Source of the DNA: Candidatus Enterousia sp.
Lineage (GTDB): Bacteria; Pseudomonadota; Alphaproteobacteria; Rs-D84
Direction: 5' to 3'
Assembly (NCBI GenBank): GCA_045614725.1
Contig: JAZLDK010000023.1
Span: 1-34,812, forward strand
Length of the DNA stretch: 34,812 nucleotides
Below the pieces are notes generated by a model. That model was not told where the DNA came from and did not search any database. It was given only the letters and a program-made list of their open reading frames with translations. The position numbers were made by a program, and so were the translations under genes. This document shows positions 1 to 28,175 of the stretch, one piece after another; position 1 is the first letter of the stretch, and each line of letters begins with the position of its first letter.

Positions 1-8
1 TATACGCG

Positions 9-141
9 GTTCGAAAGTGTATTCGAAGAGATAAAAAATGGAAATTTAACTTTCGAACTCGCCAAACCTTTATGTTTCAAACAAAAAATGCCCCAGTGGG
101 CATTTTAATAACTGTGGTTGTGCTGTCTGTGCAATTCGCGA
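9..141. repeat. Cassette junction repeat, copy A
   Basis: GTTCGAAAGT (9-18) and ACTTTCGAAC (49-58) form an inverted repeat, followed by a hairpin (85-106) and TGGTTGTGCTGTCTGTGCAATTCGCGA (115-141). Same layout at 711-845 and 1467-1588. Confidence 0.9.
85..106 (-). terminator. Intrinsic terminator-like hairpin in junction A
   Basis: AAAATGCCC-cagt-GGGCATTTT flanked by A/T tracts, downstream of the minus-strand NUDIX gene. Confidence 0.7.
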
Positions 142-196
142 GCCGATATAATCAAAATCGGACAAGAGATTTATGAAGCGAAAAACAAATTAAAGA

Positions 197-670
197 TTAT
201 TTAAAGTTTTTAATTATATCTTTAAATACAGGTTCTGTTCCTATATATTTTAAAGATTTTAATTTTGAAACATCAATCCATTGTGCGGGTTTAAGATATT
301 TCTTTTCATCTGCTGTCAAAAGAACTTTTGAAGGTGCTGCTATTGTAGTTTTGCAGATATAAAACAATTGAACACAATGATAATTTGTCCCCGTTTTAAA
401 ACTTTTGTACAAAGAAGTATATATACTTAAAATCTTTATTGGTTTCACACTAAGCCCTGTTTCTTCTTTTATTTCTCTTTTTAATGCATCGATATGGTCT
501 TCGCCCATTTCAATTGAACCACCCGGCAAAGCATATTTGTTATTAACAGGCAACAATAAAATTTTGTTTTTTTTAATAACTACCCCGTATACTGCGGGAT
601 TAAAAATTAACGATTTAGAATCCACTTTAAAAATTTTGCCGTTTACATCATGAACAGCTACTTTCGGCAT
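197..670 (-). CDS. NUDIX hydrolase
   Basis: Nudix box GGSIEMGEDHIDALKREIKEETGL; AAGGGG SD-like motif upstream. Confidence 0.92.
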   Translation of the reverse strand: MPKVAVHDVNGKIFKVDSKSLIFNPAVYGVVIKKNKILLLPVNNKYALPGGSIEMGEDHIDALKREIKEETGLSVKPIKILSIYTSLYKSFKTGTNYHCVQLFYICKTTIAAPSKVLLTADEKKYLKPAQWIDVSKLKSLKYIGTEPVFKDIIKNFK

Positions 671-695
671 TTTATAAACCCCTTTCTTTCACTTG

Positions 696-725
696 ATTAT
701 ATCACAACTAGTTCGAAAATGACAA
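696..725 (-). promoter_or_regulatory. Putative sigma70 promoter of the NUDIX gene
   Basis: Minus strand TTGTCA-N18-TATAAT with extended TG; overlaps the left arm of the junction B inverted repeat. Confidence 0.5.
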
Positions 726-845
726 TTTTTTGACATTTTTCAAAAACCGACTTTCAAACTCGGTGGAAACATTAGAAAACAAAATAAAACCCGCCTTTAT
801 CGGCGGGCTTGTCTATCTTGGTTGTGCTGTCTGTGCAATTCGCGA
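711..845. repeat. Cassette junction repeat, copy B
   Basis: GTTCGAAAAT (711-720), ACTTTCAAAC (750-759), hairpin CCCGCC-tttatc-GGCGGG (790-807), and a 27-bp block (819-845) identical to 115-141. Confidence 0.9.
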
Positions 846-1574
846 ACTAAATTGATTGAGATTAAGCAAGAAATAATAGATTTTAAACACAGATTTATGG
901 TATAATGTACAAACATGGAAAACAAAGTAAAAACTCTTTATCATGGTTCACAACATAAAATAACAGATGGCGTTATTCATGCCCGTGATGCATATTTACC
1001 AACAACAAACACGCCTATAACGGCTGTATTTGCAACGCCTGATTTTGCTCGTGCAAGAAATTATTCGTGTATGCGATTGATAGCAGACGGATGGAAATCC
1101 CCAAGAACAAGTGATATCTTGTATGTTCAAAAATTAAGCCAAGATATTTCTGGCAAAAAAGCATATATATACGAATTAGACTCTGACGGTTTTGAGTGCG
1201 ACATCGATGGGACTTATTATTCCTTGACGGACAAACCAATTAAAAGAGTTATTGAAATTGATGTTATGCAGGAAATAACAAGTGGAAACATAAAAGTATA
1301 CGTTCTAAAACCGGGTATAGATTGTCCACAAGACCGTAGCGATATATGGACAGAACTTGTTAATAACAAGGATAATTTTGAATTGTATAAGCCTGTTTCA
1401 AAAAATCTTGATATGTCGCTTTTATCACAAATGAAAGATTTAGGGATTAATAAATAATCTAAAAAAGTTCGAAAGTGGCATAAAATCGCCACTTTTTTAA
1501 TTCTAACTTTCGAACTCGATGAAAGCATTAGAAATCAAAAGAAAACTTGCTCCGATGGGCAAGTTTTGAAACTT
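819..1574. mobile_element. Putative single-gene integrative cassette 2 (756 bp, ART-like cargo)
   Basis: From TGGTTG at 819 to just before TGGTTG at 1575; one AT-rich gene with its own -10 box. Confidence 0.6.
915..1457 (+). CDS. Hypothetical protein, probable ADP-ribosyltransferase-like fold (Arr-like)
   Basis: LYHGS, AVFATPDFARA and YIYEL in the order seen in Arr/HYx ART families; TGnTATAAT at 898-906, 8 nt before the ATG. Confidence 0.6.
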   Translation: MENKVKTLYHGSQHKITDGVIHARDAYLPTTNTPITAVFATPDFARARNYSCMRLIADGWKSPRTSDILYVQKLSQDISGKKAYIYELDSDGFECDIDGTYYSLTDKPIKRVIEIDVMQEITSGNIKVYVLKPGIDCPQDRSDIWTELVNNKDNFELYKPVSKNLDMSLLSQMKDLGINK

Positions 1575-1588
1575 TGGTTGGGGCGCAC
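1467..1588. repeat. Cassette junction repeat, copy C, ending in a duplicated tRNA-Gln 3' end
   Basis: GTTCGAAAGT (1467-1476), ACTTTCGAAC (1506-1515), hairpin AAAACTTGCTC-cgat-GGGCAAGTTTT (1542-1567), then TTGGTTGGGGCGCAC (1574-1588), identical to 1748-1762. Confidence 0.9.
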
Positions 1589-1719
1589 TCAATTCCCTCG
1601 GCATATTATGCCTGCGGGGCATTCCTGACGATTTGATTGCACGTTGTTTATCAAATCTACTCATTGTCGAACCGGCAACTGGCGTTGCAGATTACGAACC
1701 GTGGCTCCGTTCAATATTA

Positions 1720-1742
1720 AAACGCACCACAAGGGTGCGTTT
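1720..1742 (-). terminator. Intrinsic terminator after tRNA-Gln
   Basis: AAACGCACC-acaag-GGTGCGTTT just 3' of the CCA end on the minus strand. Confidence 0.75.
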
Positions 1743-1748
1743 GAATAT

Positions 1749-1822
1749 TGGTTGGGGCGCACGGATTCGAACCATGATAAAGAGAACCAAAATCTCTTGT
1801 CCTACCATTAGACGACACCCCA
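1749..1822 (-). tRNA. tRNA-Gln(TTG)
   Basis: Reverse complement TGGGGTGTCGTCTAATGGTAGGACAAGAGATTTTGGTTCTCTTTATCATGGTTCGAATCCGTGCGCCCCAACCA: cloverleaf, anticodon arm AGAGA-TT TTG GT-TCTCT, GGTTCGAATCC T-arm, encoded CCA. Confidence 0.96.
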
Positions 1823-1834
1823 ATAGCGCCAATG

Positions 1835-1862
1835 ATTATAATCAAATTTATTACTATTTCAA
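1835..1862 (-). promoter_or_regulatory. Putative promoter of tRNA-Gln
   Basis: Minus strand TTGAAA-N16-TATAAT about 12 nt upstream of the tRNA. Confidence 0.55.
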
Positions 1863-1891
1863 TAAATATTTTAACACACCACTACAAAAAC

Positions 1892-1919
1892 TTGACAGAC
1901 GCACGCGTTGTACTACAAT
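1892..1919 (+). promoter_or_regulatory. Putative sigma70 promoter
   Basis: TTGACA-N16-TACAAT, 7 nt before the ATG at 1927. Confidence 0.55.
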
Positions 1920-1926
1920 CAGGATT

Positions 1927-2850
1927 ATGAATAAGAAACAAAATCTTGTATGGCAGGCGAACACAGACCGCATCGTAAACAAAGCGGTCGGTAAAATTCG
2001 TAAATACCAAGAAACGCACAATTCCGCGGAACAGTCCGCATTGCTTAAACAAATGTCGCCAGAGGTACAAATAATGGTACGATACTGGTCGCCCCAGGAC
2101 GCAATTGAAAAACTGCGCACAGCCGCCCAGAAAGATCAATTCAGACCGCGAGATTTGTCCATTGAAATGTTCGCAATGCGCGATGACTTGGAATATGTAG
2201 GCGGGGCGTTTTCAACCTATAATTATGAAATTTCAAAAATGTGGCGAAAAGACACCCCCGCAGATGAAATAAAGTTTGTTATTCGCGAAGAAATTCAAAA
2301 TAATTTGCGCCCCGTCGCGTATCAGTATGGGGAACAGATTGCGCGCCTGATGAACAAACATGAAAAACTGGCAGGGACGGCAACGAATTCTTTAAGGCAC
2401 AGAAATCCAAGCGCCATCGGAATATTTTTACAAACACTGGCCAACGATATGAAGTTCGAATTAGGACTGCACAATTACACATTAAAGATTCATGTGGTCG
2501 ATTCTTGGAACCATATACCAAGGCGCCTTTGGAATTCTGTTGACAACGATACTTTTGCGATTATTGATTTTGACAGCCGAAAAACATGGATACATATTAA
2601 TCGCAAAACCATCTTTGCAGACAGGGATAAAAAATATAAATTTAACGCGATTGTCGCAACCATGGCACATGAGTTTGGGCACTTTATCGATTGGTTCGCG
2701 CCAGACATGGGGGCACTGGGCGCACAAAAGGCCGTACTTGACTCTGGATTATATGACGAAAAGGATTATTATTCCAATGCGACCGAAGAAAGTTCAGCAA
2801 TGATTGAAAAAATCGTTTATCAAAAACTTAACGAATTACAGCGCCGATAA
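1927..2850 (+). CDS. Hypothetical protein with C-terminal zincin (HExxH) metallopeptidase-like domain
   Basis: Start set at ATG 1927 because the longer ORF overlaps tRNA-Gln. Motif AHEFGHFID plus downstream NATEESS. Confidence 0.75.
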   Translation: MNKKQNLVWQANTDRIVNKAVGKIRKYQETHNSAEQSALLKQMSPEVQIMVRYWSPQDAIEKLRTAAQKDQFRPRDLSIEMFAMRDDLEYVGGAFSTYNYEISKMWRKDTPADEIKFVIREEIQNNLRPVAYQYGEQIARLMNKHEKLAGTATNSLRHRNPSAIGIFLQTLANDMKFELGLHNYTLKIHVVDSWNHIPRRLWNSVDNDTFAIIDFDSRKTWIHINRKTIFADRDKKYKFNAIVATMAHEFGHFIDWFAPDMGALGAQKAVLDSGLYDEKDYYSNATEESSAMIEKIVYQKLNELQRR

Positions 2851-2858
2851 TTTTTATA

Positions 2859-2886
2859 GTGACAAAATATGATTTAATGATATAAT
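2859..2886 (+). promoter_or_regulatory. Putative promoter of tRNA-Glu
   Basis: GTGACA-N16-TATAAT with extended TG, 13 nt before the tRNA. Confidence 0.55.
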
Positions 2887-2899
2887 CCCTGACGAAAAT

Positions 2900-2974
2900 G
2901 GTCCCATCGTCTAGCGGTTAGGACATCGGATTCTCATTCCGGTAACACGGGTTCGATTCCCGTTGGGACTGCCA
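2900..2974 (+). tRNA. tRNA-Glu(CTC)
   Basis: GGTCCCATCGTCTAGCGGTTAGGACATCGGATTCTCATTCCGGTAACACGGGTTCGATTCCCGTTGGGACTGCCA; anticodon loop TT-CTC-AT; encoded CCA. Confidence 0.96.
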
Positions 2975-2980
2975 AATCTT

Positions 2981-3005
2981 AAAACACCGCACAAAGCGGT
3001 GTTTT
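2981..3005. terminator. Bidirectional intrinsic terminator
   Basis: AAAACACCGC-acaaa-GCGGTGTTTT between convergent tRNA-Glu and the LRR gene. Confidence 0.8.
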
Positions 3006-3062
3006 GTTGTTTTCTTTATATTCTGATGGTTCGTGCAGCGCGCGGCATATCACACCAAAACA

Positions 3063-4652
3063 TTAATGTTCAAAAAACGAACGGTCATTATTTTGAAATG
3101 CATGGCCACTGCTTTCTCCCCTGCGTTTCTGTATATCTTGGATTTTTTCTTCTAGGCGTTTCTGTGCCTCTTGAAAACTTTCTTCCAGGCGAGCATTTGC
3201 CTCTTGGGTGTGTTTTTTAAGTTTTTTATCAAACTGTTGCCATGCTATTGCCCGCGCGATATCAGTGTTGTAATATGCAAAATCGTCAAGAGTTCTCTCG
3301 TTTAATTCTGGCGCATAAAATTTTTTCAAGTTCGGCTGAGCACGGGAAAGATGTCCAAGATATGTGGCCTTTGGCACATTTATAGATTCCATAACCTGAT
3401 TACATTGCAGGGAATATTGCTCAATTCTTATTAATTCAGGCAAATCCAGTTCTGTCAACGCTTCATTACATGTCAAAAAATCTTTTTCTGTGCGTTGAAG
3501 TTTTGGGGCCCTAAATTGTGACAATATTTTATTGGCGCTTAAAAAATTTTCCCCTATTGTTTCAACGCTTGCCAAATGCATTGTCCGCAAAGAATCGTTG
3601 AAACGCAGGAAATTGTTACCAATCTTTTTGACATGTGGCAAACTTAATTCAATTATTTTGCCGTCCTTTATTGTCACCCTGTTTCCGTTCGGCGTGCTTA
3701 GGACCGTTGTTTTATCTGATTTGTTCGTAGTCCTTGTCACCGACTGGCCGTTAAATGCCGCCTTGAATATATTGACCGTATCATCGTCAATTGGCGACGA
3801 TATTTCTTTTGTCCTGGTATCATAAATCATGTAATCCATCATTATCTGACAGTTGCTGTCTAATTTAGTAATTGTACTGCCAGAAAAATAATAATCCGAA
3901 CCGAAATGAACGTTATCTATTTCATAGCGGTATTGTACAATTTGATCATGAATCATTAGGTACTTGTTCGGCAAGGGAGTGTTAGAAACATTGAAATCAA
4001 CACCAAAATATACCTGTAATGCCATTGTCAGACCAGGGATAATGTTATCTGGGTTATTATCAAAAGTCGCATCTGGATTTTGATCCTTTATTGTGTGATT
4101 ATAGCGATTTTTGATTGATATAAAACCACCGTCTTTGATTATTTGAATCGATATAACCGAAGTTCCGTATTCATCTTCGCGTCTTGGCGTGTCCGAAGGA
4201 CGTATTTTATCGGCACCGCGTTTTACAGCATGAATCATGTGATAGTTTATATGACGCCTTGGGTCCCTAAAAGTGCATATTTCTTCACCCGGACGATAAT
4301 ATTTTATTATAGAATTTTTTTGTTCTTCGGTCTTTACAACAAAAGCATCATAACCGGCCTCGGACAACAATTCCAGTGGGGATTTCGTCGTGAAATATTG
4401 ATTCTCTTCGTGCCGGGTGTATATTTCCTGAATAACCCTGCGTATTTTCAACGCATCATATTCATCACGACCAGCGTATTCCAATATATGCACTATATTA
4501 GGGACACCAAGCAAACTGCCGTCGTGGGTCCTGTCGCCCCTAATAACCTGGGCAAACTTTTCGCCATTTTGTTTTTTTATCTGCTTAAAGACTTTTTCCG
4601 TATCTATTTTTTCCGCCAATTCAGTCCCCTTTCTTGCCAAGAATTTTAACAT
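3063..4652 (-). CDS. Leucine-rich-repeat (BspA/TpLRR-like) protein with uncharacterised N-terminal domain
   Basis: C-terminal ~22-aa repeats (LPHVKKIGNNFL, LASVETIGENFL, LPELIRIEQYSL); N-terminal EDEYGTSVISIQ...SIKNRYNH...NPDATFDNNPDNIIPGL block; charged coiled-coil tail. Confidence 0.8.
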   Translation of the reverse strand: MLKFLARKGTELAEKIDTEKVFKQIKKQNGEKFAQVIRGDRTHDGSLLGVPNIVHILEYAGRDEYDALKIRRVIQEIYTRHEENQYFTTKSPLELLSEAGYDAFVVKTEEQKNSIIKYYRPGEEICTFRDPRRHINYHMIHAVKRGADKIRPSDTPRREDEYGTSVISIQIIKDGGFISIKNRYNHTIKDQNPDATFDNNPDNIIPGLTMALQVYFGVDFNVSNTPLPNKYLMIHDQIVQYRYEIDNVHFGSDYYFSGSTITKLDSNCQIMMDYMIYDTRTKEISSPIDDDTVNIFKAAFNGQSVTRTTNKSDKTTVLSTPNGNRVTIKDGKIIELSLPHVKKIGNNFLRFNDSLRTMHLASVETIGENFLSANKILSQFRAPKLQRTEKDFLTCNEALTELDLPELIRIEQYSLQCNQVMESINVPKATYLGHLSRAQPNLKKFYAPELNERTLDDFAYYNTDIARAIAWQQFDKKLKKHTQEANARLEESFQEAQKRLEEKIQDIQKRRGESSGHAFQNNDRSFFEH

Positions 4653-11751: not shown

Positions 11752-11779
11752 AAAAAATCCGCCGGTTGGCGGATTTTTT
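11752..11779. terminator. Bidirectional terminator
   Basis: AAAAAATCCGCC-ggtt-GGCGGATTTTTT between convergent genes. Confidence 0.85.
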
Positions 11780-20698: not shown

Positions 20699-20722
20699 AA
20701 CACGCCCAGTTGGGCGTTTTTT
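20699..20722 (-). terminator. Putative intrinsic terminator
   Basis: ACGCCCA-g-t-TGGGCGT stem immediately after the stop of the 714-aa gene. Confidence 0.5.
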
Positions 20723-22865
20723 ATTCTTCCCCTTCTTCTGGGGGGGTGTCGGAGGGCGTGGGCTCAGGACAGCTGCCATCTGAGTTGAATTTGCCGTTCT
20801 CACATTCAACGCGGCAACTGCTGCCCCAGACTTTATAGCCGGCATTACAACGACATAATGAATTAACCCATTGCTCATTGTTGCCTGTTTTTTCACTGCC
20901 AAAAGTCTGACCTGTGGTATTTTTACCGTACTTGTAATATGTTGAATATTCAGGGCACAGCAATGATTGATAGAATATTTCAGATATCGCATCGATATAT
21001 GCGCCGGCATCGCATGATGTGGGGGTGGAGCCCTCAGTTGTGCCACATACCGATGCCGCATCGCCATCAAATACCGCATACGCACAGGTTAACGCAACAT
21101 TGCGGCATGCGCCACGCATTACACTGCTGATATTTTTAACACTGGCGGCCGATGTCCACGAATTAATCTGGGCATATTGCTGATTATAACATGCGGCAAT
21201 ATCGCTGATACATTCGGATGCGTATTCGGAAATAATCTTGTGCTGGGCGGCCTTGATATTAACCATGGCACGCTGAACATATGTCAAAACGACATCGTTA
21301 TATGGTTCATACTTGTCATCCTTGTATGTATAACGCTGACACTTGTCCAAAACGGCACGACATAGCCCTTCGTCTGCAACCTCGTCCTTGGTGCCGATTT
21401 TTTGCAGCAGGTATTTTACATTGTATGCGCCATTACCACTGACATCACCCGTGGTGGATATGTTTCCATTATATGCGGTGTCTAAAAATTCAGTGTCTAT
21501 ATCTGAATTGTTATACGCGGTCATAAAGTCGGTGATTTGGGTGATATCCTGACCAAGTACAACCTCGCCATTTTCGTCGATATACTTTTTGGTTGGGTCC
21601 AAACATTTGTAATAATCAGAACCACAAACCATGTCATCGGTCATACAGGTTTCAAGTGCAGCAACACAGCCCTTGGCATCGTATTGATTTTTATTTTCAA
21701 GCACCGCCAGACGCGCCTTTTGCAACATTAATCCAGCACTGCGAACATTAGACTTTAACGCATCGTTCATTTTTACCAGTCCCTGTTCGTATGCGATACA
21801 ATCCTTGTCAATGGCCAGATCATAATTACCGGTAATCTGTTGTGATGTGGCACCGGCATCCTTGCAACTGGTTAAAATTGTGTTGCAACGCTTTTTCGCG
21901 GCATTATACAAATCCGCACCACGAAGGTTGGAAAAACTGGACGAAGTGTCGGTATTCAAAAAATCCAAACTGAACATATCGGCGGAATCAGATGAAAAAT
22001 TCAAATCAATATCCATGCCCGAATATGTGTCCGCGTTATACGATGCCGCCGTTGTCGGGTCCTTAATCATTTCTTCGATTTTTTCCAACATGTTGCGCGT
22101 TTCGGATGTGTCACGCGAACCGCTAAGTTCGGCTTCGGCCTCGGTCTCGTTCATAATGGCACGAATTTCATCCGCGGACAAACCAACATAACGAATACGC
22201 TGGGCAACATCGTTTAATTGTGTGTTGGCATCTTTAACCGCATCTTCTACTTTCTTGTATCTTGAAATATTTGCTGAACAGGAACATCTTTTCTGGTTCG
22301 CATCAATCACGGCACAAAACTGGTCCATACATTCATTATATTGCTGCTGACAAGTTTTATTTAATTCGGCGGTTTGTTCCAGACGCTCTTTGGCCTGGGC
22401 AATTGATTCACGATTTGTTTCGGTCGCGGCACGCGAACGAACAGTGCGTATTTCTTCATCAATATTTGAACCAGTCTGTTTATCGGTCCCAGATATTGTG
22501 GCACGGCCGCCAACCTCGGCCGTAGAGGGGCGCAAAACAATCCCCGCACGACGAAGGGCCGGATTATTATTTATACTGGCCGCGGAAACACGCGAATTGC
22601 GACCAACGGTATTTACCGCCGCATCCAGCGCAGCACGCGAAGATTTTGTCCCCGTACGCGATGCAGTTGTGCGCGATGCAGTTGATTGTGTTTTGGTTTC
22701 CACCGCACGCGATATTGTACGCGATGCCGCACGATTGCGGACACTGGTTGTGTTCGTTGCAACCCCATCCATTGTTGGAACCGCACGAGATACAGCGCCC
22801 GTCGCAGCAAATGCCGCGGGCGCAACCAAACACATTACCCAAAAACAAGTTAAAAAGTTCCTCAT
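20721..22865 (-). CDS. Large secreted cysteine-rich hypothetical protein
   Basis: Signal peptide, R/A/S/T-rich N-terminal tract, CQQQYNECMDQFC...RCSCS, many paired Cys, EGF-like C-terminus. Confidence 0.85.
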   Translation of the reverse strand: MRNFLTCFWVMCLVAPAAFAATGAVSRAVPTMDGVATNTTSVRNRAASRTISRAVETKTQSTASRTTASRTGTKSSRAALDAAVNTVGRNSRVSAASINNNPALRRAGIVLRPSTAEVGGRATISGTDKQTGSNIDEEIRTVRSRAATETNRESIAQAKERLEQTAELNKTCQQQYNECMDQFCAVIDANQKRCSCSANISRYKKVEDAVKDANTQLNDVAQRIRYVGLSADEIRAIMNETEAEAELSGSRDTSETRNMLEKIEEMIKDPTTAASYNADTYSGMDIDLNFSSDSADMFSLDFLNTDTSSSFSNLRGADLYNAAKKRCNTILTSCKDAGATSQQITGNYDLAIDKDCIAYEQGLVKMNDALKSNVRSAGLMLQKARLAVLENKNQYDAKGCVAALETCMTDDMVCGSDYYKCLDPTKKYIDENGEVVLGQDITQITDFMTAYNNSDIDTEFLDTAYNGNISTTGDVSGNGAYNVKYLLQKIGTKDEVADEGLCRAVLDKCQRYTYKDDKYEPYNDVVLTYVQRAMVNIKAAQHKIISEYASECISDIAACYNQQYAQINSWTSAASVKNISSVMRGACRNVALTCAYAVFDGDAASVCGTTEGSTPTSCDAGAYIDAISEIFYQSLLCPEYSTYYKYGKNTTGQTFGSEKTGNNEQWVNSLCRCNAGYKVWGSSCRVECENGKFNSDGSCPEPTPSDTPPEEGEE

Positions 22866-22909
22866 ACCTTTCAGTAATTATAACACAAAAAATATACTGG
22901 GAAAAGTGT

Positions 22910-24184
22910 TTATTTTTTCTTGAACAGGCCACGAACCTTTTTGAAGGATACGGTCGCAAACTCTTGGACATAGCCGCGCGTTTTTTCACCCAGACTTGCA
23001 TCAATTTCACCGCCAATTTTCTTGGATATTTCTTCGGCTTTGGTTGCCAAATACCATACCAAGGCGCCGGTCAGCACCGTTCCTATAAAGCCCGCATTAT
23101 CCAGGGATGGGATGTGCGAAGCACTGTTCGAACCGATAACGCCCGATAACATCGCGCCACAAAATGCGATAACTATTGAAAACACAACAAAGAATACCGC
23201 CGCGTTGATAAAACGCCCCAACTGTTTCTGTAATGATTCAGCACTAAATAACTTTACAAAACCGTTATAAACCTCGCCATAAATGCCTTTGTACGATGTC
23301 TTGCCCGTGGTTTCTGCAATGGCGGTGAATGGCAACATCATAACACCAAGGAATAAATCTGCGATTACCCCCAGGGATATGAACGCATATTTCCAAGCCA
23401 GACATACAAAACCAATCACAAAGCCCAGCCCCGCCAAAAAACCAAAAACATTGCCACCGATGCCACCACTCATCCACTTGAACCCAACACCAATCGCGGT
23501 ATAACAAAAACCACTAATCGTTGCAGGGATACATAAAATCGCAGAAACAGTATCACGGGTCATAATATTTTCGGCCGCAATGTTATGAGCGACATAGTTT
23601 TTTATCGCGCCACATGTGTTCGGCATCGAAGTGCCAACAATTGATGTAATGGAATTATATATTACATTTGCCAGATATGTAGCAAAATCAATAATTGGCG
23701 ACACAATCATCATGAACAAATCACGCAACCCAACATTCAGAACAACAACCCATATTGTGACCAGAATGCCCTTTTTGACAATTTCTTCGACTTGTTTTTT
23801 TGTGTCGGCCTGACCCTGGATAAGACGATAAGATTCCAACCCCGCCCAAAATATATACATTACCGTTATAAAGATTATAACAAAATGCCCCAAAGAATCA
23901 TCCAAAACCCTGGCGACATAAGACATGGCATTCATGAACGCCAAACCTATCTTGGATTCAATCGGAACGGTACCAGGGGCACTTGAAAATCCAGATGTAA
24001 AAGTATCCAGTTCGGCCCTGGTATTCTGGATAAGATGCTGGCGATTTGTTTCAGTTGTCCACATACCATAATCGCCAACACCCTGCATTCCCAAATCTAT
24101 GGCAGAATACGCCGGTGACATTACACCAGACAAAGTTATGCCAAGAAACAGTATCGATAAAAATCTATATATACGCTTTATCAT
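22910..24184 (-). CDS. Polytopic membrane protein, TrbL/VirB6-like paralogue
   Basis: N-terminal hydrophobic helices, central loop with a Cys pair, C-terminal TM bundle with DLFLGVMMLPF. Confidence 0.65.
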   Translation of the reverse strand: MIKRIYRFLSILFLGITLSGVMSPAYSAIDLGMQGVGDYGMWTTETNRQHLIQNTRAELDTFTSGFSSAPGTVPIESKIGLAFMNAMSYVARVLDDSLGHFVIIFITVMYIFWAGLESYRLIQGQADTKKQVEEIVKKGILVTIWVVVLNVGLRDLFMMIVSPIIDFATYLANVIYNSITSIVGTSMPNTCGAIKNYVAHNIAAENIMTRDTVSAILCIPATISGFCYTAIGVGFKWMSGGIGGNVFGFLAGLGFVIGFVCLAWKYAFISLGVIADLFLGVMMLPFTAIAETTGKTSYKGIYGEVYNGFVKLFSAESLQKQLGRFINAAVFFVVFSIVIAFCGAMLSGVIGSNSASHIPSLDNAGFIGTVLTGALVWYLATKAEEISKKIGGEIDASLGEKTRGYVQEFATVSFKKVRGLFKKK

Positions 24185-24186
24185 TT

Positions 24187-25617
24187 CTACATCGTTTTCC
24201 CAAATGCTTCTGTCACCTTTTTGACAACATTAAGTGGTCCATTCCATGCGACCCGACCAACATCCTTGACCCAGCCACCAAAATCAAAGCTTTCCTTGCC
24301 ATCGCCCGCCAATAACTTATCAACCTTGGGACGAACAACCAATAAGTACAGGATAAACAATCCCAACATCATTAACAAAAATTCCGAACCATTTTCCAAG
24401 AATCTAAATGCGCTTGGGTTGCGAGATTTAGCCGCATTAAAGCAGGACAAGAACCGATCTTCGTCCACGGCGCCACCAGATGTCACCGACACACGTTCAC
24501 AATTTACAAACGTGTTGATTACAAATTGGGTGTTTGCATCAGAACGAGCCTGTTCCTTTTGAATTAACGGAGGCAACAAAGCCGTAAAACCATCGCGCGG
24601 GCCCGGGTAATAAGTATCGGCAACAAAATATACAGTTTCGTAAAGAATTATTGTTTTCAAGGCAATTCCCACTATCTTTACCGCAGACGATACAATCATA
24701 TTTATCGCACCACTGGTCAGACCACTGGCCATTTTCCAGGTACCTTCAAACGCAGCGGCCGCCAATAATATCGGCATAAATATAATCACAAATATTGTCT
24801 TGAATACAACGGATAATAGCTGAAAAAACAAATCAAAACCAATTACCATGAACATGATAACCAATGCAAGACCAGACAGCCATGTAAACAAACCCGCCCC
24901 CAGACCAAGCCACGCATAATTCATCATCGCAAAGCCGCCTGCCGCGCCCGCCAACATGACCGTATTAACATTACCAATAACACATGAAAATGGTTTTATA
25001 ACTGGCCCCAAAATATCGTTTTCATCACTCATGTCAATTGTTGGGCACTTGGCAGAACCCGATAAGCCACTGGCCGCAACAGACAATTCTGCCCCCAGAT
25101 ACATTACAGGCGTGATTGTTAATTTTGAAACCACTTTAAGTGCATCGGTTCCGCCGCCACTTATCACCCCCATAATCGCACCAACAATCAGAACGCGAAG
25201 TCCCTGTCGCCAGACCTTGTCAAACCATCCTTTGAATTCAAGTTTCTTTTCAGCACCATCCAATTTGGCCGTTTGTTTTGCGGCATCCAGCAAATATTGT
25301 ATCGTATAAATTATCAGAAAAACCCCAAACCCAAGCGCCAATAAAATCCACATAGAATCCAACAATTTGGTCCAAAACAGTTCTGTTGCATTACCCAAGG
25401 TTGAAAATAAATCAGCAACAAAACTGCACATAAAGCAACCATTCGCACTGGATATGTCGCCGTTGGTGACACCAATCGCACGCAAGAAATTATCGGTATT
25501 TGTATAGGTCAAAGCGGTACCACTTATCGACGAGGAAACAAACCATATCCCAGCACCAAGCAAAATGCCACCCATAAGGATACGCAAAAGAATCGAAATG
25601 ATTTTTAACTTGAACAT
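24187..25617 (-). CDS. Polytopic membrane protein, TrbL/VirB6-like paralogue
   Basis: GCFMC, central Cys pair, FVIIFMPILLAAAAF. Confidence 0.65.
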   Translation of the reverse strand: MFKLKIISILLRILMGGILLGAGIWFVSSSISGTALTYTNTDNFLRAIGVTNGDISSANGCFMCSFVADLFSTLGNATELFWTKLLDSMWILLALGFGVFLIIYTIQYLLDAAKQTAKLDGAEKKLEFKGWFDKVWRQGLRVLIVGAIMGVISGGGTDALKVVSKLTITPVMYLGAELSVAASGLSGSAKCPTIDMSDENDILGPVIKPFSCVIGNVNTVMLAGAAGGFAMMNYAWLGLGAGLFTWLSGLALVIMFMVIGFDLFFQLLSVVFKTIFVIIFMPILLAAAAFEGTWKMASGLTSGAINMIVSSAVKIVGIALKTIILYETVYFVADTYYPGPRDGFTALLPPLIQKEQARSDANTQFVINTFVNCERVSVTSGGAVDEDRFLSCFNAAKSRNPSAFRFLENGSEFLLMMLGLFILYLLVVRPKVDKLLAGDGKESFDFGGWVKDVGRVAWNGPLNVVKKVTEAFGKTM

Positions 25618-26837
25618 TACGACTTGTCCCCTTTGATTGCATTTATGACTTTACTGCCGGCGCTGGCCGTGGCATTGAAAATGTTTTTGGTCACGCCTTC
25701 TAGACCATTTGCCAAACCTTCACCAATCTTTGCATCATCTTTGACATTAAACGCATTCAGTATCATTGTTGTCACCTGACCAATTTGGTCATAAACCCAG
25801 TTCATAACAAACAATAAAACAATACAGTTTCCAAATGTCATGGCATATATGCTGTCCATGGAAAATTCCATCTTGAAAACATCCCCAGAGGTTATGGCCG
25901 CCATCAAGTCTTCTACCGAGACCGCATTCGAACTAAAGAACTTGGAAACCAATATAATTATTATCGTGTATGTAATGACGGTTGCAACCAACGAAATAAT
26001 CGCGTTTACTAGACTTTTAAACTGCTCTATGCCCAACGATTTGCCCAGCGCAGAAATCCATGCTGGCACACCTTCTAGGCCCTTGAACGGGGTTAAAATT
26101 AATGATATCGGAAAGAAAAACGCAAAAAATGTCATGGCAATAATAATGTCAACAAACTTGCAACAAAATCTGAAAAACAATTTGAAGAACTGCCATGTTA
26201 AGGCAATACCGATGAAAAATATAATTACATGCTTTAGAATATTGCCAAGCCCAAGCAAAAAACCATCGCTGGACTTTAATAAGGAATCCCACTCAAAAGA
26301 AGCATCAATAATAGCAACCCCAAGTTTTATGTATGATTGGAACTGAGAAACCGTCGTCATCATCATTAACAAGATAGTATCACGCAACTGGGGACGATAA
26401 AAACCATCGTCACGCATTTGCATGGGCGTATAACTGACACGTTGTTCGGTATGTTCGGATGTAGTTTTTAACATTCCTTCGGTATAACTTAGGGCAACTT
26501 GGGCAATTGGCTCGAAAGTGACGGTCGTGACAAAACGCGGCAAAGCCACACCAATATTCAACAAAGAAAGCGCAACCAATGCATTTATCACAACCTTTTG
26601 CACGGATTTTGTATACATCGGGTCCTTAACACCACCCTTGATATTCTGCCAGACTGTGCTTAACACATAAAAAGCCAACAAAACAGCAAACAATCCCGTG
26701 CATATAAACACCAATTTATCATAAACAACCGAAGCGGATTGGGACACAATTTGAAACAACCTGTCAAACAGACTGCACCCCCAGCACTGGATATGCTCGT
26801 TCACGGTCGTATCAACAAAATCGGTGATCCAACTCAT
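25617..26837 (-). CDS. Polytopic membrane protein, TrbL/VirB6-like paralogue
   Basis: QCWGC, LPRFV..FEP, FFFPISLILTPF. Confidence 0.65.
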   Translation of the reverse strand: MSWITDFVDTTVNEHIQCWGCSLFDRLFQIVSQSASVVYDKLVFICTGLFAVLLAFYVLSTVWQNIKGGVKDPMYTKSVQKVVINALVALSLLNIGVALPRFVTTVTFEPIAQVALSYTEGMLKTTSEHTEQRVSYTPMQMRDDGFYRPQLRDTILLMMMTTVSQFQSYIKLGVAIIDASFEWDSLLKSSDGFLLGLGNILKHVIIFFIGIALTWQFFKLFFRFCCKFVDIIIAMTFFAFFFPISLILTPFKGLEGVPAWISALGKSLGIEQFKSLVNAIISLVATVITYTIIIILVSKFFSSNAVSVEDLMAAITSGDVFKMEFSMDSIYAMTFGNCIVLLFVMNWVYDQIGQVTTMILNAFNVKDDAKIGEGLANGLEGVTKNIFNATASAGSKVINAIKGDKS

Positions 26838-28093
26838 TATTTTTTCCTAAGATTCTTAATCCACTTAATGCCTTTGCTGGCCGTGCCGTATGCAGATTTT
26901 GCATCCGACACAACGCTTTTATGCATTCCGTCCAGACCCTTGGCATATTGCTTCAACTGATCCTGGGTCATTTGAAATATTTTCAGCATTAAATAGAAAG
27001 TTAACAATGCAGACAATATTGTTATGGACTGCTGACCAAAAGCCTCCATCCCCAGACTTGGCATCGGAACATTACCCGTTGCAGAACCACCTGCGACATC
27101 ACTGTACACAGATGTACCGGACGGAAACAGCGCCCGAACAACCGCAACATTAATAGCCAACATAAACGCCGCCGCAATTATTGTGATAACCAAATCTTGT
27201 AATGCTTTGACAACGCCGGAAAACGCCGGCCACACATCAAACCACTTGTCACTGGATTTGAACACATATGTTAATACCTGAAACGGATAAAGCATCAAGG
27301 ACATACCAAAATTAAATATCCCCTGCAAAATAATCATTACCATAAATATATTACTGCTGACAAATGTAAACACCAATATCAGCCCCGTCACAATATTCAT
27401 AAAATCCTGACCGCCGTGCGGAATCAATGTTATCAAGCCACGCAAACCATCGGTCATCATTTTCCAGCCGCGTTCCACAACACGATTATTAGCGTTTGAT
27501 ATTTTCGCAACAGGCTTGATTAAAAAATCACAGGAACGTTCCGAAAGCCAGCCTTGCTGTACAACCTCGGGCGGGCACGAAATATCATACACACCGGAAT
27601 CCTGAATATTTATCCCATCAATAACATATTCCGTGTACACAGACCCCAATTCAAGAAACGGATTAACCAAAAAGTCTACTATCAAAACCGGTCGTATTTG
27701 CAAAAACAAAAGAACAGCCAAAATTGCACGGAACCCAGGTTTTAAAACATTTTGCGCAACGGTCATTCCGCCAATACCATTGCCCCACATTTCACCACCA
27801 CCAGTAAACCCGAATATCTCGCCCCAGTTTTTTGGAAAATACATTTTAGCCAAATAAAGTCCCATTGATATCGCAGTACCACCCCATATCAAAATAAACA
27901 AAGGCCCCCGACCATTTGACCCAACAAAATATTCATATGTAGAGGATGCGATACTTATAACAACTTCTAGCATATTGGGAACAAACGGCGCCAAATTCAT
28001 CATATCAATCAGTCCACCCGCCACAGCAGAGGCAGGCGCAAAAAGCACCACACACAAAATCAACGAACAAATTAAACGACTTAAGACTCTCAT
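26837..28093 (-). CDS. Polytopic membrane protein, TrbL/VirB6-like paralogue
   Basis: Signal-like N-terminus, FLVNPF, central Cys pair, LMLYPFQVLTYVF. Confidence 0.65.
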   Translation of the reverse strand: MRVLSRLICSLILCVVLFAPASAVAGGLIDMMNLAPFVPNMLEVVISIASSTYEYFVGSNGRGPLFILIWGGTAISMGLYLAKMYFPKNWGEIFGFTGGGEMWGNGIGGMTVAQNVLKPGFRAILAVLLFLQIRPVLIVDFLVNPFLELGSVYTEYVIDGINIQDSGVYDISCPPEVVQQGWLSERSCDFLIKPVAKISNANNRVVERGWKMMTDGLRGLITLIPHGGQDFMNIVTGLILVFTFVSSNIFMVMIILQGIFNFGMSLMLYPFQVLTYVFKSSDKWFDVWPAFSGVVKALQDLVITIIAAAFMLAINVAVVRALFPSGTSVYSDVAGGSATGNVPMPSLGMEAFGQQSITILSALLTFYLMLKIFQMTQDQLKQYAKGLDGMHKSVVSDAKSAYGTASKGIKWIKNLRKK

Positions 28094-28175
28094 CCCCTAT
28101 AACAATACCATTTTTATTTTTTTAAGTATAGTAAATTTATACCAAAATTTGATATAATTTATGATATAATTCAAT

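Follow-up and report, generated by a model that had tools for sequence, protein, structure and literature searches.

A cassette-array joint at tRNA-Gln(UUG) in Candidatus Enterousia that probably descends from the end of a large serine recombinase gene

The first bases of the window (the whole stretch of Candidatus Enterousia DNA analysed here, 34,812 nucleotides) share repeats with two places further downstream, which raises the question of what these sequences are and from what they derive. The initial annotation took all three for fossil 3' ends of a recombinase gene read through an attachment core. The repeats and spacings on which it relied were reproduced, namely the 27-mer TGGTTGTGCTGTCTGTGCAATTCGCGA (115-141 and 819-845), the ACT-TTC repeats (ACTTTCRAACTCG at 49-61, 750-762 and 1506-1518), the distances of 63, 66 and 66 nt from TTC to TGG (52 to 115, 753 to 819 and 1509 to 1575) and all three translations, as were the stops TAA TAA at 106-111, given which frame 1 is open from 1 to 105 and not to 108. 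According to our analysis, bases 1-204 are probably a joint of a tandem cassette array at tRNA-Gln(UUG), composed of the relic of a large serine recombinase (LSR) gene end and a far site arm.

Bases 1-204 are one of three joints (A, B and C; Table 1) in a cassette array placed at the 3' end of a tRNA-Gln(UUG) gene. The core TGGTTG is found at 115, 819 and 1575 in the joints and at 1749 in the tRNA gene itself, the 3' end of which (1748-1762, 15 nt) is copied exactly in the core of joint C. The left arm, GTTCGAAART at 9-18, 711-720 and 1467-1476, forms an inverted repeat with the right arm, and the repeat of the right-arm motif in the window is beyond chance, as five copies with up to two mismatches were counted against 0.70 expected, a number reached in none of 100 shuffles. 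The cassettes (a NUDIX gene and a 180-aa gene) are single small enzyme genes without a recombinase, lie in both orientations and have promoters of their own; the end of the joint B tail overlaps the extended -10 element TGGTATAAT of the next gene. No recombinase, including any tyrosine recombinase domain, was detected by Pfam in the 34.8-kb window, and in bases 1-3200 two tRNAs alone passed with Rfam, the four other matches being far below gathering scores. The NUDIX gene is also a PADLOC candidate (PDC-S07, E 3e-10). The region 894-1540 is about 88% identical to a cassette in another array (L021), cassette 2 is also 77% identical to L077 and 70% to L064-66, and the same cargo recurs in different arrays, the cargo types of which comprise GNAT, methyltransferase, NUDIX and kinase-like enzymes.

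Table 1. Position of the joints, their parts, the cassette genes and the anchoring tRNA gene in the window
Feature	Position	Strand	Remarks
Joint A	9-204		
Left arm, joint A, GTTCGAAAGT	9..18	+	Corresponds to codons (S)SKV of the presumed ancestral recombinase gene
Spacer between arms, joint A	19..48	+	Apparent decayed remnant of recombinase codons
Right arm, joint A, ACTTTCGAACTC	49..60	+	Presumed ancestral reading (L)LSN(S), not TFEL
Intrinsic terminator, joint A (hairpin AAAATGCCC...GGGCATTTT, then T run)	85..106	-	Placed to end the NUDIX transcript
Core TGGTTG, joint A	115..120	+	Reverse complement of CAACCA, the tRNA-Gln 3' end; presumed crossover region
27-mer	115..141	+	Presumed recombinase-binding half-site, far (P') side of core
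Post-core tail frame, joint A, WLCCLCNSRADIIKIGQEIYEAKNKLKII	115..204	+	Stop 202-204; would presumably serve an intact recombinase gene on the left as alternative C-terminal tail
Cargo of cassette 1, NUDIX hydrolase gene, 157 aa	197..670	-	Pfam PF00293, E 1.4e-13
Promoter-like site of NUDIX gene (TTGTCA, 18 nt, TGnTATAAT)	696..725	-	11/12 matches, TG present; overlaps joint B left arm
Joint B	711-905		
Inverted repeat, joint B, GTTCGAAAAT ... ACTTTCAAACTC	711..761	+	51 nt
Terminator hairpin, joint B	787..810	-	
Core, 27-mer and tail frame, joint B, WLCCLCNSRTKLIEIKQEIIDFKHRFMV	819..905	+	Stop 903-905
Cargo of cassette 2, 180-aa ORF	915..1457	+	No family match
Joint C	1467-1588		
Inverted repeat, joint C	1467..1517	+	Spacer with plus-strand terminator 1471-1496 for the cassette 2 gene
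Terminator hairpin, joint C	1542..1567	-	
Core of joint C	1574..1588	+	Exact 15-nt copy of tRNA-Gln 3' end
Non-coding unit between joint C and tRNA	1589..1747	-	Cores at both bounds; covarying helices on minus strand
tRNA-Gln, anticodon UUG	1749..1822	-	Anchor of the array

Using an inverted-repeat pattern built from the joints of the window, we scanned MAG contigs of gut Alphaproteobacteria and recovered at least 132 matching stretches, where about 2 would be expected by chance (own arithmetic). Some 18 distinct matches lay within long ORFs, with an arm spacing that was always equal among the matches listed; because the arms were the search key, their match to these genes is partly by construction. 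The genes concerned are intact, encode about 500-555 aa, end in ...SSKV..LLSN..KKPFD..WLGQLDSNQH and run antisense into a tRNA gene. They are large serine recombinases, as the initial annotation had proposed: the Pfam domains Resolvase, Recombinase and Zn_ribbon_recom are present in all five tested (PF00239 with E 8.6e-16 to 6.1e-18; PF07508 and PF13408 likewise 5/5), cysteines C313, C316, C338 and C345 are invariant in 24 LSR sequences, and the TP901-1 catalytic domain 3bvp was matched with E 5.8e-6, this being the sole domain with a solved-structure match by sequence. NCBIfam gave weak, below-cutoff matches to XisF and CcrA. The AlphaFold model of one LSR (pLDDT 77.9; long helices at 371-449, in keeping with a coiled-coil insertion) was matched by Foldseek to full-length serine integrases with E 8.7e-22 to 1e-13, the best being 9dxd_A, and aligns over about 550-565 columns with the serine integrase complexes 9dxd, 9iu2, 9tep and 4kis, with TM-scores of just 0.2-0.46 because domain placement differs. 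The overlap of such genes with tRNA 3' ends, also anticipated, is indeed seen in the intact ones, on the opposite strand: at eight of the nine loci scanned the LSR 3' end overlaps a tRNA gene (Gln-CUG, Gln-UUG, Glu or Asp), no overlap being found at the ninth, L043, and the tRNA-Gln(UUG) of the window is the one used by L080 and L114.

Aligned with these gene ends, the joints have the same order of parts (arm, spacer, arm, A run, hairpin, about 12 nt, core), those of the window being 22-25 nt shorter. At the position of the left arm the intact genes read AGT TCG AAA GT, and their right arm is CTT TCG AAC (L-S-N), 90 nt before the TGG (88 nt from TTC, that is 1 mod 3); the TGGTTG core is read as W-L at the end of the gene. 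The arm-to-arm pattern is 52 nt long in joint A, as in the genes, and 51 nt in B and C. In frame 2, the putative ancestral frame, the spacer region of joint A reads GSKVYSKR*KMEI*LSNS and keeps S-K-V and K-R at the right codons; its best ungapped identity to 18 recombinase coding spacers is 17/30, a value reached by 454 of 20000 shuffles, and the spacers of joints B and C have been replaced by promoter-like or terminator sequence. One locus, L117, has a tail and a spacer of the relic type together with a right part of undeleted length (88 nt) and so stands between gene and relic, and P0002, P0003 and P0007 are further, less decayed intermediates, P0002 with long in-frame recombinase stretches upstream of the arms. 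As judged from this collinearity, the joints are relics of a recombinase gene 3' end that read through the TGGTTG core, which agrees with the proposal made at the outset, and the cassettes could plausibly be internally deleted derivatives of an LSR element. The ancestral frame, judged in the same way, is L-S-N, and a shortening by roughly 22 nt appears to have brought T-F-E-L in phase with TGG; the T-F-E-L reading and the proposed tail 'GxLxFELxKP' are not supported, since intact genes read the right arm as L-S-N. The expected similarity at the protein level was not obtained either: tblastn of 18 LSR C-termini against the whole window matched none of the three joints, its sole matches being the tRNA-encoded stretch and a read-through of the non-coding unit. 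The missing match is what would be expected of joints that are frame-shifted and decayed, if they are so, but it is still a failed test.

The hairpin of the joints is a minus-strand terminator. A local hairpin scan across many genomes found a minus-strand hairpin with a T tail in 63 of 79 joints (46 distinct hairpins) and in 2 of 79 shuffles; it was used instead of a whole-segment folding criterion, which under-counted (22/79). In intact genes the equivalent hairpin lies within codons KKPFD..TNSC and ends the tRNA transcript. As for the arms, three LSR homologues that were found by protein similarity and not by the pattern have kept the repeat, at constant spacing, via paired changes that alter amino acids (L134, AGTTCGAAAGT/ACTTTCGAACT; L133, AAAAGTTCGCAAA/TTTGCGAACTTTT, SSQ..FAN; L135, AAAGTTCGGAA/TTCCGAACTT, SSE..FPN), and such compensatory changes in independent LSR genes argue that the arms act at the level of nucleic acid. 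In 12 joints found independently, wobble pairs within the arms had no strand bias, so that a one-strand hairpin and a symmetric protein site are indistinguishable by this measure; the arms may bind a dimeric protein, perhaps the LSR, or may form a hairpin. Mimicry of the tRNA T-arm half-site by the arms was also considered and suited tRNA-Gln; by our own reading it fails in the homologue that targets tRNA-Asn. In the 9.3-kb record of L134 there was no second site copy longer than 10 nt, and dyad scans of 53 joints gave no clear axis at TGGTTG (best axes 0.35-0.37, mean 0.22-0.25).

Beyond the core, variation of the 27-mer by codon position (0.36/0.41/0.28) is low and even, which fits a DNA site. 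The stretch after it varies in a codon-like manner (0.945/0.619/1.261) and is open for 26-50 codons in 49 of 53 variants, with the consensus WLCYLCNSR(A/T)ELLEIGxEIDxxKxKL, so that its supposed coding character in the proposed frame was borne out; in L117, P0002, P0003 and P0007 the recombinase codons continue in frame through W-L into the tail. These alignments suggest that the post-core tail probably completes an intact LSR gene placed upstream. A full-length LSR carrying this tail was not found by phmmer, word-index, tail-only or tblastn searches. The 59-aa reading of L117, compared by phmmer with 1.84 billion representatives, gave 15 matches of 43-224 aa and none longer, and the word-index search with the C-terminus of L028 gave 18 LSRs of 440-564 aa, none with the tail, of which most end in tRNA-like sequence (WLGQLDSNQH and similar) and one, P0030, in a non-coding unit. 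Among longer proteins the tail-only search yielded 12 candidates and one match, a cargo fusion, and the homologues found by tblastn in phages (32 records) and plasmids (7 records) were all in integrated form, adjoining tRNA-Leu, Glu, Asn and Tyr/Thr. In 21 of the 33 tail-bearing joints outside the exact pattern there is no upstream inverted repeat, and the L007-type element has a presumed far arm of another type than the 27-mer.

We propose that the LSR gene of an intact element would traverse its own crossover site and enter the tRNA gene in antisense. The left half of joint A (9-114) would derive by decay, shortening and frame shift from a copy of the last ~105-130 nt of such a gene and would retain three of its working parts: the inverted arms of 10-12 nt (codons SSK and LSN), the hairpin with its A run, which would act as a terminator on the other strand, and the TGGTTG core. 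The right half (115-204) would be the far site arm, with the 27-nt half-site followed by ~20 codons that continue the recombinase frame to a stop, and an intact LSR gene that has such an arm on its right, whether in an array or in an excised circle, would gain the cassette tail in place of the tRNA-encoded one. Crossover would take place within TGGTTG, the recombinase gene would span attP and the tail may be a functional alternative C-terminus; new units presumably insert beside the tRNA, and intact LSRs encoded in the same genome may act in trans to move cassettes that have no recombinase.

In its strongest form, which we hold to be possible but rather doubtful, this explanation would mean that Candidatus Enterousia and related gut Alphaproteobacteria with less than 1 Mb of genome have an LSR-based, integron-like capture system, with P-TGGTTG-P' cassettes moved in trans, a C-terminal tail swapped at each event and the 52-nt repeat as an accessory cis site. 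Cassettes would be excised and re-inserted beside tRNA-Gln by recombinases supplied in trans and, since the recombinase gene would lie across its own crossover site, each recombination would swap its C-terminal tail. With the gene beside the tRNA, the tail would be encoded by the tRNA and disordered; with the gene beside a cassette or in a circle, it would be a conserved helix-like tail of ~25 residues, and the swap could set the direction of the reaction. The 52-nt inverted repeat in the gene end would then be a second, accessory binding site, needed in cis.

The joint layout is common to dozens of gut bacteria with very small genomes. On contig JAZONN010000026, for example, housekeeping genes are followed by a native terminator joined to core and tail, two cassettes, a non-coding unit and a core, the flank of this final core opening with an Mrr-like gene, and about 4-5 kb further on the same contig an intact LSR reads into tRNA-Gln(CUG). 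Intact LSR and array occur together in one MAG in at least four assemblies (CAMZFU, JAFZXK, JAZONN and CAJOHU). Comparison of arrays showed that the window is about 93-95% identical to L021 from 894 to about 1520 and then divergent before the core, and that it differs from L112 in cargo and spacer and is similar from the right arm onward; over 74 joints the sharing of any one block is independent of that of the adjacent blocks, with pair classes such as LLHL (39), LHLL (22), HHLL (4) and HHHL (4). A mosaic boundary at or just after the right arm in several pairs points to homologous exchange in the conserved block. Breakpoints there and not at the core, the independence of joint blocks and the failure of the protein, phage and plasmid searches to find any circular or attP-form sequence all speak for the view that the arrays are dead relics, in which the joints came from LSR ends and were shuffled by homologous recombination in a block of ~40-100 nt together with vertical descent. 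However, it is difficult to see how the tail would stay open in 49/53 variants and codon-like if it were not joined to intact genes time and again, HHHL pairs, in which the breakpoint is at the core, exist too, and intact LSRs are found beside arrays in those four or more MAGs, one of them abutting the tRNA on the array's own contig. We therefore consider dead arrays a serious alternative, though one with the odds against it.

It is very unlikely that the descent was reversed, that is, that the joint block is an old non-coding module over which the LSR frame was extended. Arms that act at the nucleic-acid level and a working terminator hairpin do give the block functions independent of coding, and the joints of the window have no detectable similarity at the protein level. 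Against this, the SSK..LSN..KPFD segment would be a confidently folded part of the LSR according to the model (helix 477-487, strands 491-499, helix 504-512; mean pLDDT of about 68-87 per 10-residue block over residues 471-510) and its residues vary little or not at all among 24 LSRs, homologues from distant taxa included; the less decayed P0002, with its long in-frame recombinase stretch upstream of the arms, and the S-K-V and K-R codons of the joint A spacer also argue for descent from gene to joint.

Even less likely is a real small gene, with the frame TFEL...WLCC..., crossing each joint. In joints B and C no stop interrupts this frame between the right arm and the end of the tail, and the same holds for 42 of 80 joints; within the 66-nt class the frame is broken by a stop in 8 of 46 joints, against 21 and 42 in the other two frames. 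However, in joint A two stops immediately precede the core, by our own reading joint B offers neither an ATG or GTG start nor a ribosome-binding site within its open stretch, variation from arm to core in the 66-nt class is not codon-like in the TFEL frame (0.71/0.99/0.74), and the arm is read in another frame by the intact genes. The conservation of frame expected when more junctions are aligned was found only in part: over joints from many genomes the phase is kept in 60 of 80 (47 at 66 nt and 13 at 63 nt, with stops in 18 of the 60), and 20 of 80 are out of phase. The agreement of the three joints of the window is itself weak evidence because it would arise by chance about once in nine, and in our relic reading ACT-TTC would be in phase with TGG because the 63- and 66-nt joints are shortened copies. 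For annotation, the practical point is that the short open frames in these joints of ~130-200 nt do not make them genes.

LSRs are in wide use for genome engineering, and we found no description of several testable features of the present ones: tRNA ends as target of the family, a recombinase gene that extends over its own site, a possibly switchable C-terminal tail and a symmetric element in coding sequence kept by compensatory changes. The arrays at tRNA-Gln may also be a main route of accessory gene gain and loss in these bacteria, as tycheposons are in Prochlorococcus, because the genomes of Candidatus Enterousia and the order Rs-D84 are reduced, mostly below 1 Mb, and the words 'mobile' and 'integrase' are absent from the passages on Rs-D84 genomes in the part of that source consulted (PMC12306168).

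Of known systems, integrons share single-gene arrays beside one primary site, an inverted repeat in the joints and the kind of cargo. The present arrays differ by another recombinase family, the lack of attC boxes and of intI, their own promoters and terminators and both orientations. The attC boxes have the form RYYYAAC...GTTRRRY (R''/L''...L'/R'). Integron-type cassettes with attC moved by a tyrosine integrase (IntI) are highly improbable here: the single-gene arrays, the imperfect inverted repeat in joints of ~100-130 nt and the fixed primary site make a superficial likeness, but the arms GTTCGAAAGT...ACTTTCGAAC fit these boxes in neither sequence nor order, the cassettes lie in both orientations with their own promoters, no tyrosine recombinase was found in the window or among 86 ORFs from 26 array loci, and the order of parts in the joints follows that of a serine recombinase gene end.

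In the SCC/SCCmec islands of staphylococci, a large serine recombinase inserts elements at a conserved gene 3' end, and tandem arrays include recombinase-less units bounded by site repeats; here the target is a tRNA gene, the units are of ~0.7-1 kb with a single gene, and each joint has a relic that appears to be a recombinase end. CIMEs, derived from integrative conjugative elements, typically belong to tyrosine-recombinase systems, have no recombinase, keep both site halves and can stand in tandem with an intact element; the single-gene cassettes in long arrays seen here are unlike them. A coding sequence that spans attP is found in the intP gene of Mx8. In the integration-dependent immunity of mycobacteriophages, as cited in the portion consulted of PMC10865867, the attachment site is inside a reading frame and integration swaps the C-terminus. 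By contrast, here it would be the gene of the serine recombinase itself that contains the site, and the sequence is the sole basis for proposing a swap.

Tycheposons of Prochlorococcus, as described in the part consulted of bioRxiv 10.1101/2020.12.28.424599, insert at tRNA genes of a streamlined genome, newcomers pushing older ones into the island, and leave remnants with fragmented integrases and partial tRNAs; most have tyrosine recombinases, are multi-kb and carry replication modules, and 27 of 937 have a large serine recombinase. They share tRNA-gene integration, a small host genome and remnants with the arrays studied here, and differ, as there described, in having no recombinase-end relic, embedded terminator, inverted repeat or post-core tail. 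The serine integrases (phiC31, Bxb1, the Listeria A118-type LI integrase and TP901-1; also CcrA and XisF) share the three Pfam domains and the fold with the intact relatives. What distinguishes the latter from them is that the last 30-60 nt of the gene overlap an opposite-strand tRNA gene, that the site core is the CAACCA end of the tRNA, that a tRNA terminator hairpin and a 52-nt inverted repeat lie inside the last ~130 nt of coding sequence and that the far arm appears to encode an alternative C-terminal tail.

At the three joints of the window, the repeated junctions of the cassette array at the 3' end of tRNA-Gln(UUG), an inverted repeat spans 52, 51 and 51 nt (A, B and C, both arms included). 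With up to two mismatches allowed, the window contains five copies of the right-arm motif, where 0.70 would be expected, and none of 100 shuffles reached that number. Downstream of the right arm lie about 25 nt with an A run at the end, then a G+C-rich hairpin and, about 12 nt past it, the core TGGTTG, which on the opposite strand reads as CAACCA, the end of tRNA-Gln(UUG); at joint C, 15 nt are identical to the tRNA-Gln end. The hairpin of joint A is positioned as a terminator for the NUDIX gene of cassette 1, whose promoter-like site overlaps the left arm of joint B. An extended -10 element at the end of the joint B tail, the reading frame after the core, precedes the cassette 2 ORF, and a terminator for this ORF sits between the arms of joint C. 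No recombinase was found anywhere in the gene content of the window, the remaining genes of which are housekeeping (class I tRNA synthetase, FtsK, MurG, FtsW, MraY, PBP). The three translations proposed in the initial annotation, the positions of the 27-mer (a repeat beginning at the core, presumed half-site) and the TTC-to-TGG distances of 63, 66 and 66 nt were all reproduced; frame 1, described as open over bases 1-108, is limited to 1-105 by TAA TAA at 106-111 in joint A.

Features of the cassette array and its surroundings in the window
Feature	Position	Strand	Remark
Left arm GTTCGAAART	9-18, 711-720, 1467-1476	+	inverted repeat with right arm
Right arm ACTTTCRAACTCG	49-61, 750-762, 1506-1518	+	
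Intrinsic terminators	106-85, 810-787, 1567-1542	-	G+C-rich hairpin of each joint
27-mer	115-141, 819-845	+	
13-nt copy of anticodon-stem region	160-172 vs 1790-1802		
Cassette 1 cargo, NUDIX gene	197-670	-	
Cassette 2 cargo, 180-aa ORF	915-1457	+	
16-nt exact tRNA-Gln copy	934-949 vs 1769-1784		variable loop to T stem, tRNA sense
Non-coding unit	1575-1754	-	
tRNA-Gln(UUG)	1749-1822		
310-aa ORF	1918-2850	+	between tRNA-Gln and tRNA-Glu
Six consecutive ORFs	20721-28684	-	714, 424, 476, 406, 418, 195 aa

Scanning genome_contigs with the pattern GTTCGAAART-N26-32-ACTTTCRAACTC gave more than 132 stretches (a lower bound), where about 2 are expected by chance according to our own arithmetic; counts here run over related sequences and are not independent events. 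Full flanks were recovered for 80 loci only, the first 80 among the matches listed, which come from 58 assemblies (count from the table), nearly all gut or rumen Alphaproteobacteria MAGs and many named Candidatus Enterousia. The majority of the matches listed are window-like joints, often several per contig and 0.7-1.5 kb apart, and about 18 distinct ones fall within long ORFs, where the arm spacing is constant. These ORFs are large serine recombinases (LSR): the Resolvase, Recombinase and Zn_ribbon_recom domains are present in all five tested, and the AlphaFold model of one such protein, L080 (mean pLDDT 77.9, 24-sequence alignment as input), aligns to solved full-length serine integrases (best 9dxd_A, E 8.7e-22). 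The LSR genes end in ...ELFxSSKVExKRxxLxxLLSNxxLxDxKLxYxxRKPFDxL....WLGQLDSNQH, in which the left arm provides the SSKV codons (AGT TCG AAA GT), the right arm LSN (CTT TCG AAC), and WLGQLDSNQ comes from a tRNA-Gln 3' end read in reverse complement. According to ARAGORN, a tRNA gene on the opposite strand (Gln-CUG, Gln-UUG, Glu or Asp) overlaps the LSR gene end at eight of nine loci scanned, L043 being the sole exception. L080 and L114 share the tRNA-Gln(UUG) of the window, with an overlap of 60 nt in L080, and the tRNA terminator hairpin is embedded in the LSR codons KKPFD..TNSC. The domains and the tRNA overlaps bear out that part of the initial proposal in which the recombinase is an LSR with a gene reaching a tRNA 3' end. 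LSR genes with the same embedded repeat also occur in MAGs labelled Saccharimonadales, Brachyspira and Gammaproteobacteria (L013, L020, L068), bins that may be mis-binned, and homologues with compensated arms on a Legionella adelaidensis plasmid; either the family has spread widely by horizontal transfer, or some contigs are mis-binned.

The right arm had been read as TFEL, in one frame with the core. In intact LSR genes TTC-to-TGG is 88 nt (CTT-to-TGG, 90 nt), so that the arm is read L-S-N and not T-F-E. Among 141 distinct contexts, the window's three included, TGGTTG lies 40-140 nt downstream in 80, at 66 (47 joints), 63 (13), 64 (5), 65 (3), 62 (2), 88 (6) and 67, 68, 40 and 121 nt (one each) from TTC. 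The predicted conservation of frame stood insofar as the phase is kept in 60 of the 80, and open in 42 of those 60; the variation, however, is not codon-like (0.71/0.99/0.74 by codon position in the 66-nt class of 46 joints, with a stop in this frame in only 8), and phase follows architecture. By alignment, the window joints lack 22-25 nt of the LSR gene end in the interval from the right arm to the A run preceding the hairpin, and it is this loss that sets ACT-TTC in phase with TGG. Considering the shortening, the shared distances and the variation without codon pattern, the phase agreement follows, on sequence grounds, from the architecture that the joints have in common.

The ancestral frame of joint A gives GSKVYSKR*KMEI*LSNS, and its spacer shares up to 17 of 30 positions with LSR spacers, a score reached by 454 of 20000 shuffles. 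A tblastn search of the window with 18 LSR C-termini recovered none of the three joints. The probable homology of joints and LSR ends is instead founded on collinearity, on the link between pattern and LSR family, which is beyond chance, on the tRNA end common to both, and on intermediates: L117 retains the full 88-nt right part, and in three short predicted proteins (P0002, P0003, P0007) recombinase codons continue in frame through W-L.

Three homologues, found through protein similarity and independently of the arm pattern, keep the inverted repeat at unchanged spacing by paired, amino-acid-altering changes: L134 (MT836653.1, tRNA-Glu) with arms AGTTCGAAAGT / ACTTTCGAACT read SSK..LSN, L133 (MT837677.1, tRNA-Leu) with AAAAGTTCGCAAA / TTTGCGAACTTTT read SSQ..FAN, and L135 (the Legionella adelaidensis plasmid, tRNA-Asn) with AAAGTTCGGAA / TTCCGAACTT read SSE..FPN. 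These compensatory changes argue that the repeat is selected as nucleic acid, in genes and relics. Since arm mismatches have no strand bias, they fit a hairpin and a symmetric protein site equally. The inter-arm spacer is variable, and relic spacers hold promoter-like sequence or a terminator. Of 33 tail-bearing joints off the exact pattern, the right arm is present with 0-1 mismatch in 12; the other 21 have no repeat at all and carry in its place a native terminator or the final part of the non-coding unit.

A degenerate 27-mer expression, applied to the loci and the window, gave 53 distinct arms, and the W-L frame is open for 26-50 codons in 49 of them (consensus WLCYLCNSR(A/T)ELLEIGxEIDxxKxKLxLxNLH), with length differences of whole codons. 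Of the remaining four, three are closed within 9 codons and the fourth, L038, has 47 open codons of unrelated sequence. In 40 arms free of length differences, which were selected with a loose protein pattern spanning codons 1-15, the variation at the three codon positions is 0.945/0.619/1.261 over nt 28-81 and even within the 27-mer (0.36/0.41/0.28), so that the 27-mer behaves as a DNA site would and the remainder of the tail as coding sequence, in agreement with the coding-like stretch initially noticed there. Upstream of the core, at most 56 codons are open in all 53 arms, and no full-length recombinase with this tail was found in any protein, phage or plasmid search. From the in-frame intermediates and the codon pattern, we infer that the tail would complete an intact LSR gene to its left. 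The tRNA-encoded tail of the LSR model (residues 519-537) has pLDDT below 50. A second far-arm family, TGGTTG..GGGCGAAACGCGAG, read WLWCVGETR or WLGCAGETR (L030-L033, L064-L067), alternates with the 27-mer type within the same arrays (cores 10716, 11417, 13291, 14220), which suggests that more than one recombinase specificity may feed one array.

In CADARU010000009, cores at 11761, 12501, 13291, 14220 and 15282 are followed by tRNA-Gln(CUG) at 15548, and JAZROL010000017 carries a similar array. JAZONN010000026 holds a whole array, which starts from MurJ and RlpA-like genes and continues with the native terminator fused to TGGTTG and a tail, two cassettes (one with ART-PolyVal), the non-coding unit, a core with an Mrr-like gene at the start of its flank and, about 4-5 kb beyond this last core, an intact LSR running into tRNA-Gln(CUG). 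The stretch from last core to LSR is inferred to be one element of about 5.7 kb, and the far arm past this core is not of the 27-mer type. Intact LSR and array occur together in the same MAG in at least four assemblies. The 86 ORFs of at least 90 aa at 26 array loci include GNAT, SAM methyltransferase, HD, histidine phosphatase, RNase T-like, nucleotidyltransferase, APH-like, AAA_33, MYG1 and hydrolase domains, and many gave no domain match. Cargo of related arrays includes ART-PolyVal, Mrr-like, GNAT, APH-like and nucleotidyltransferase genes, the NUDIX cargo of the window gives a match (E 3e-10) to PDC-S07, a candidate defence model of PADLOC, and some cassettes may serve defence or small-molecule modification.

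Cassette 2 shares about 88% identity overall with the L021 cassette that is second from tRNA-Gln(CUG): about 93-95% from promoter through arms, lower in the hairpin segment and none past the core. Across 74 joints, the cargo end, spacer, arm-to-core and post-core blocks can each be shared with unrelated neighbours (pair classes include LLLH 47, LLHL 39, LmHL 37 and LHLL 22, and more rarely HHLL 4 and HHHL 4), which places breakpoints at the arms as well as the core. This spread fits homologous exchange within the conserved block, besides any site-specific events.

We propose that an element with its recombinase at one end would insert at the CAACCA end of tRNA-Gln, its LSR gene abutting the tRNA, providing its terminator and gaining a short tRNA-encoded tail. 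Later arrivals would insert beside the tRNA, displacing older units outward, and loss of most of the recombinase gene would leave units with both site halves, arms and terminator, the cassettes of the window. Intact recombinases in the same MAG could move such units in trans.

As regards the enzyme, serine integrases are closest. The nearest systems for tandem units are SCC composite islands and CIMEs, in which recombinase-less units stand in tandem, and integrons are alike in array appearance. For tRNA-anchored accretion in a streamlined genome the closest system, from passages of its preprint, is tycheposons (bioRxiv 10.1101/2020.12.28.424599) and, for a reading frame spanning attP, integration-dependent immunity, as cited in PMC10865867. 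Literature searches, mainly at the level of abstracts, turned up no report of serine-recombinase relics between tRNA-Gln cassettes or of Enterousia mobile elements. According to passages of PMC12306168, in which the words "mobile" and "integrase" are absent, genomes of Enterousia and its order are mostly below 1 Mb.

Between array and tRNA lies a non-coding unit of 160-199 nt, elsewhere found inside arrays, bounded by TGGTTG cores and with a tRNA-Gln-like minus-strand end ...GCCCCAACCA. It has 18 relatives (including L112:409-588, L040:1768-1943, L019:2083-2273 and L030:3860-4034) and no Rfam match; for 16 of them RNAalifold predicted 16 pairs, of which 8 show compensatory changes, and in one helix the double changes number 7-9 per pair. 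Possible interpretations are a structured RNA and an empty cassette that would provide a second docking site.

Beyond the tRNA, the 310-aa ORF has no match in Pfam, NCBIfam or PADLOC and carries an HEFGH motif that looks like a zinc protease signature. The six ORFs adjoining the cell-wall gene cluster have no Pfam match at E 0.001. The 16-nt copy of tRNA-Gln falls within the 5' end of the ORF in cassette 2, on the strand opposite to the tRNA gene, and is retained in the L021 homologue; the 13-nt copy falls inside the IGQEI codons of the joint A tail.
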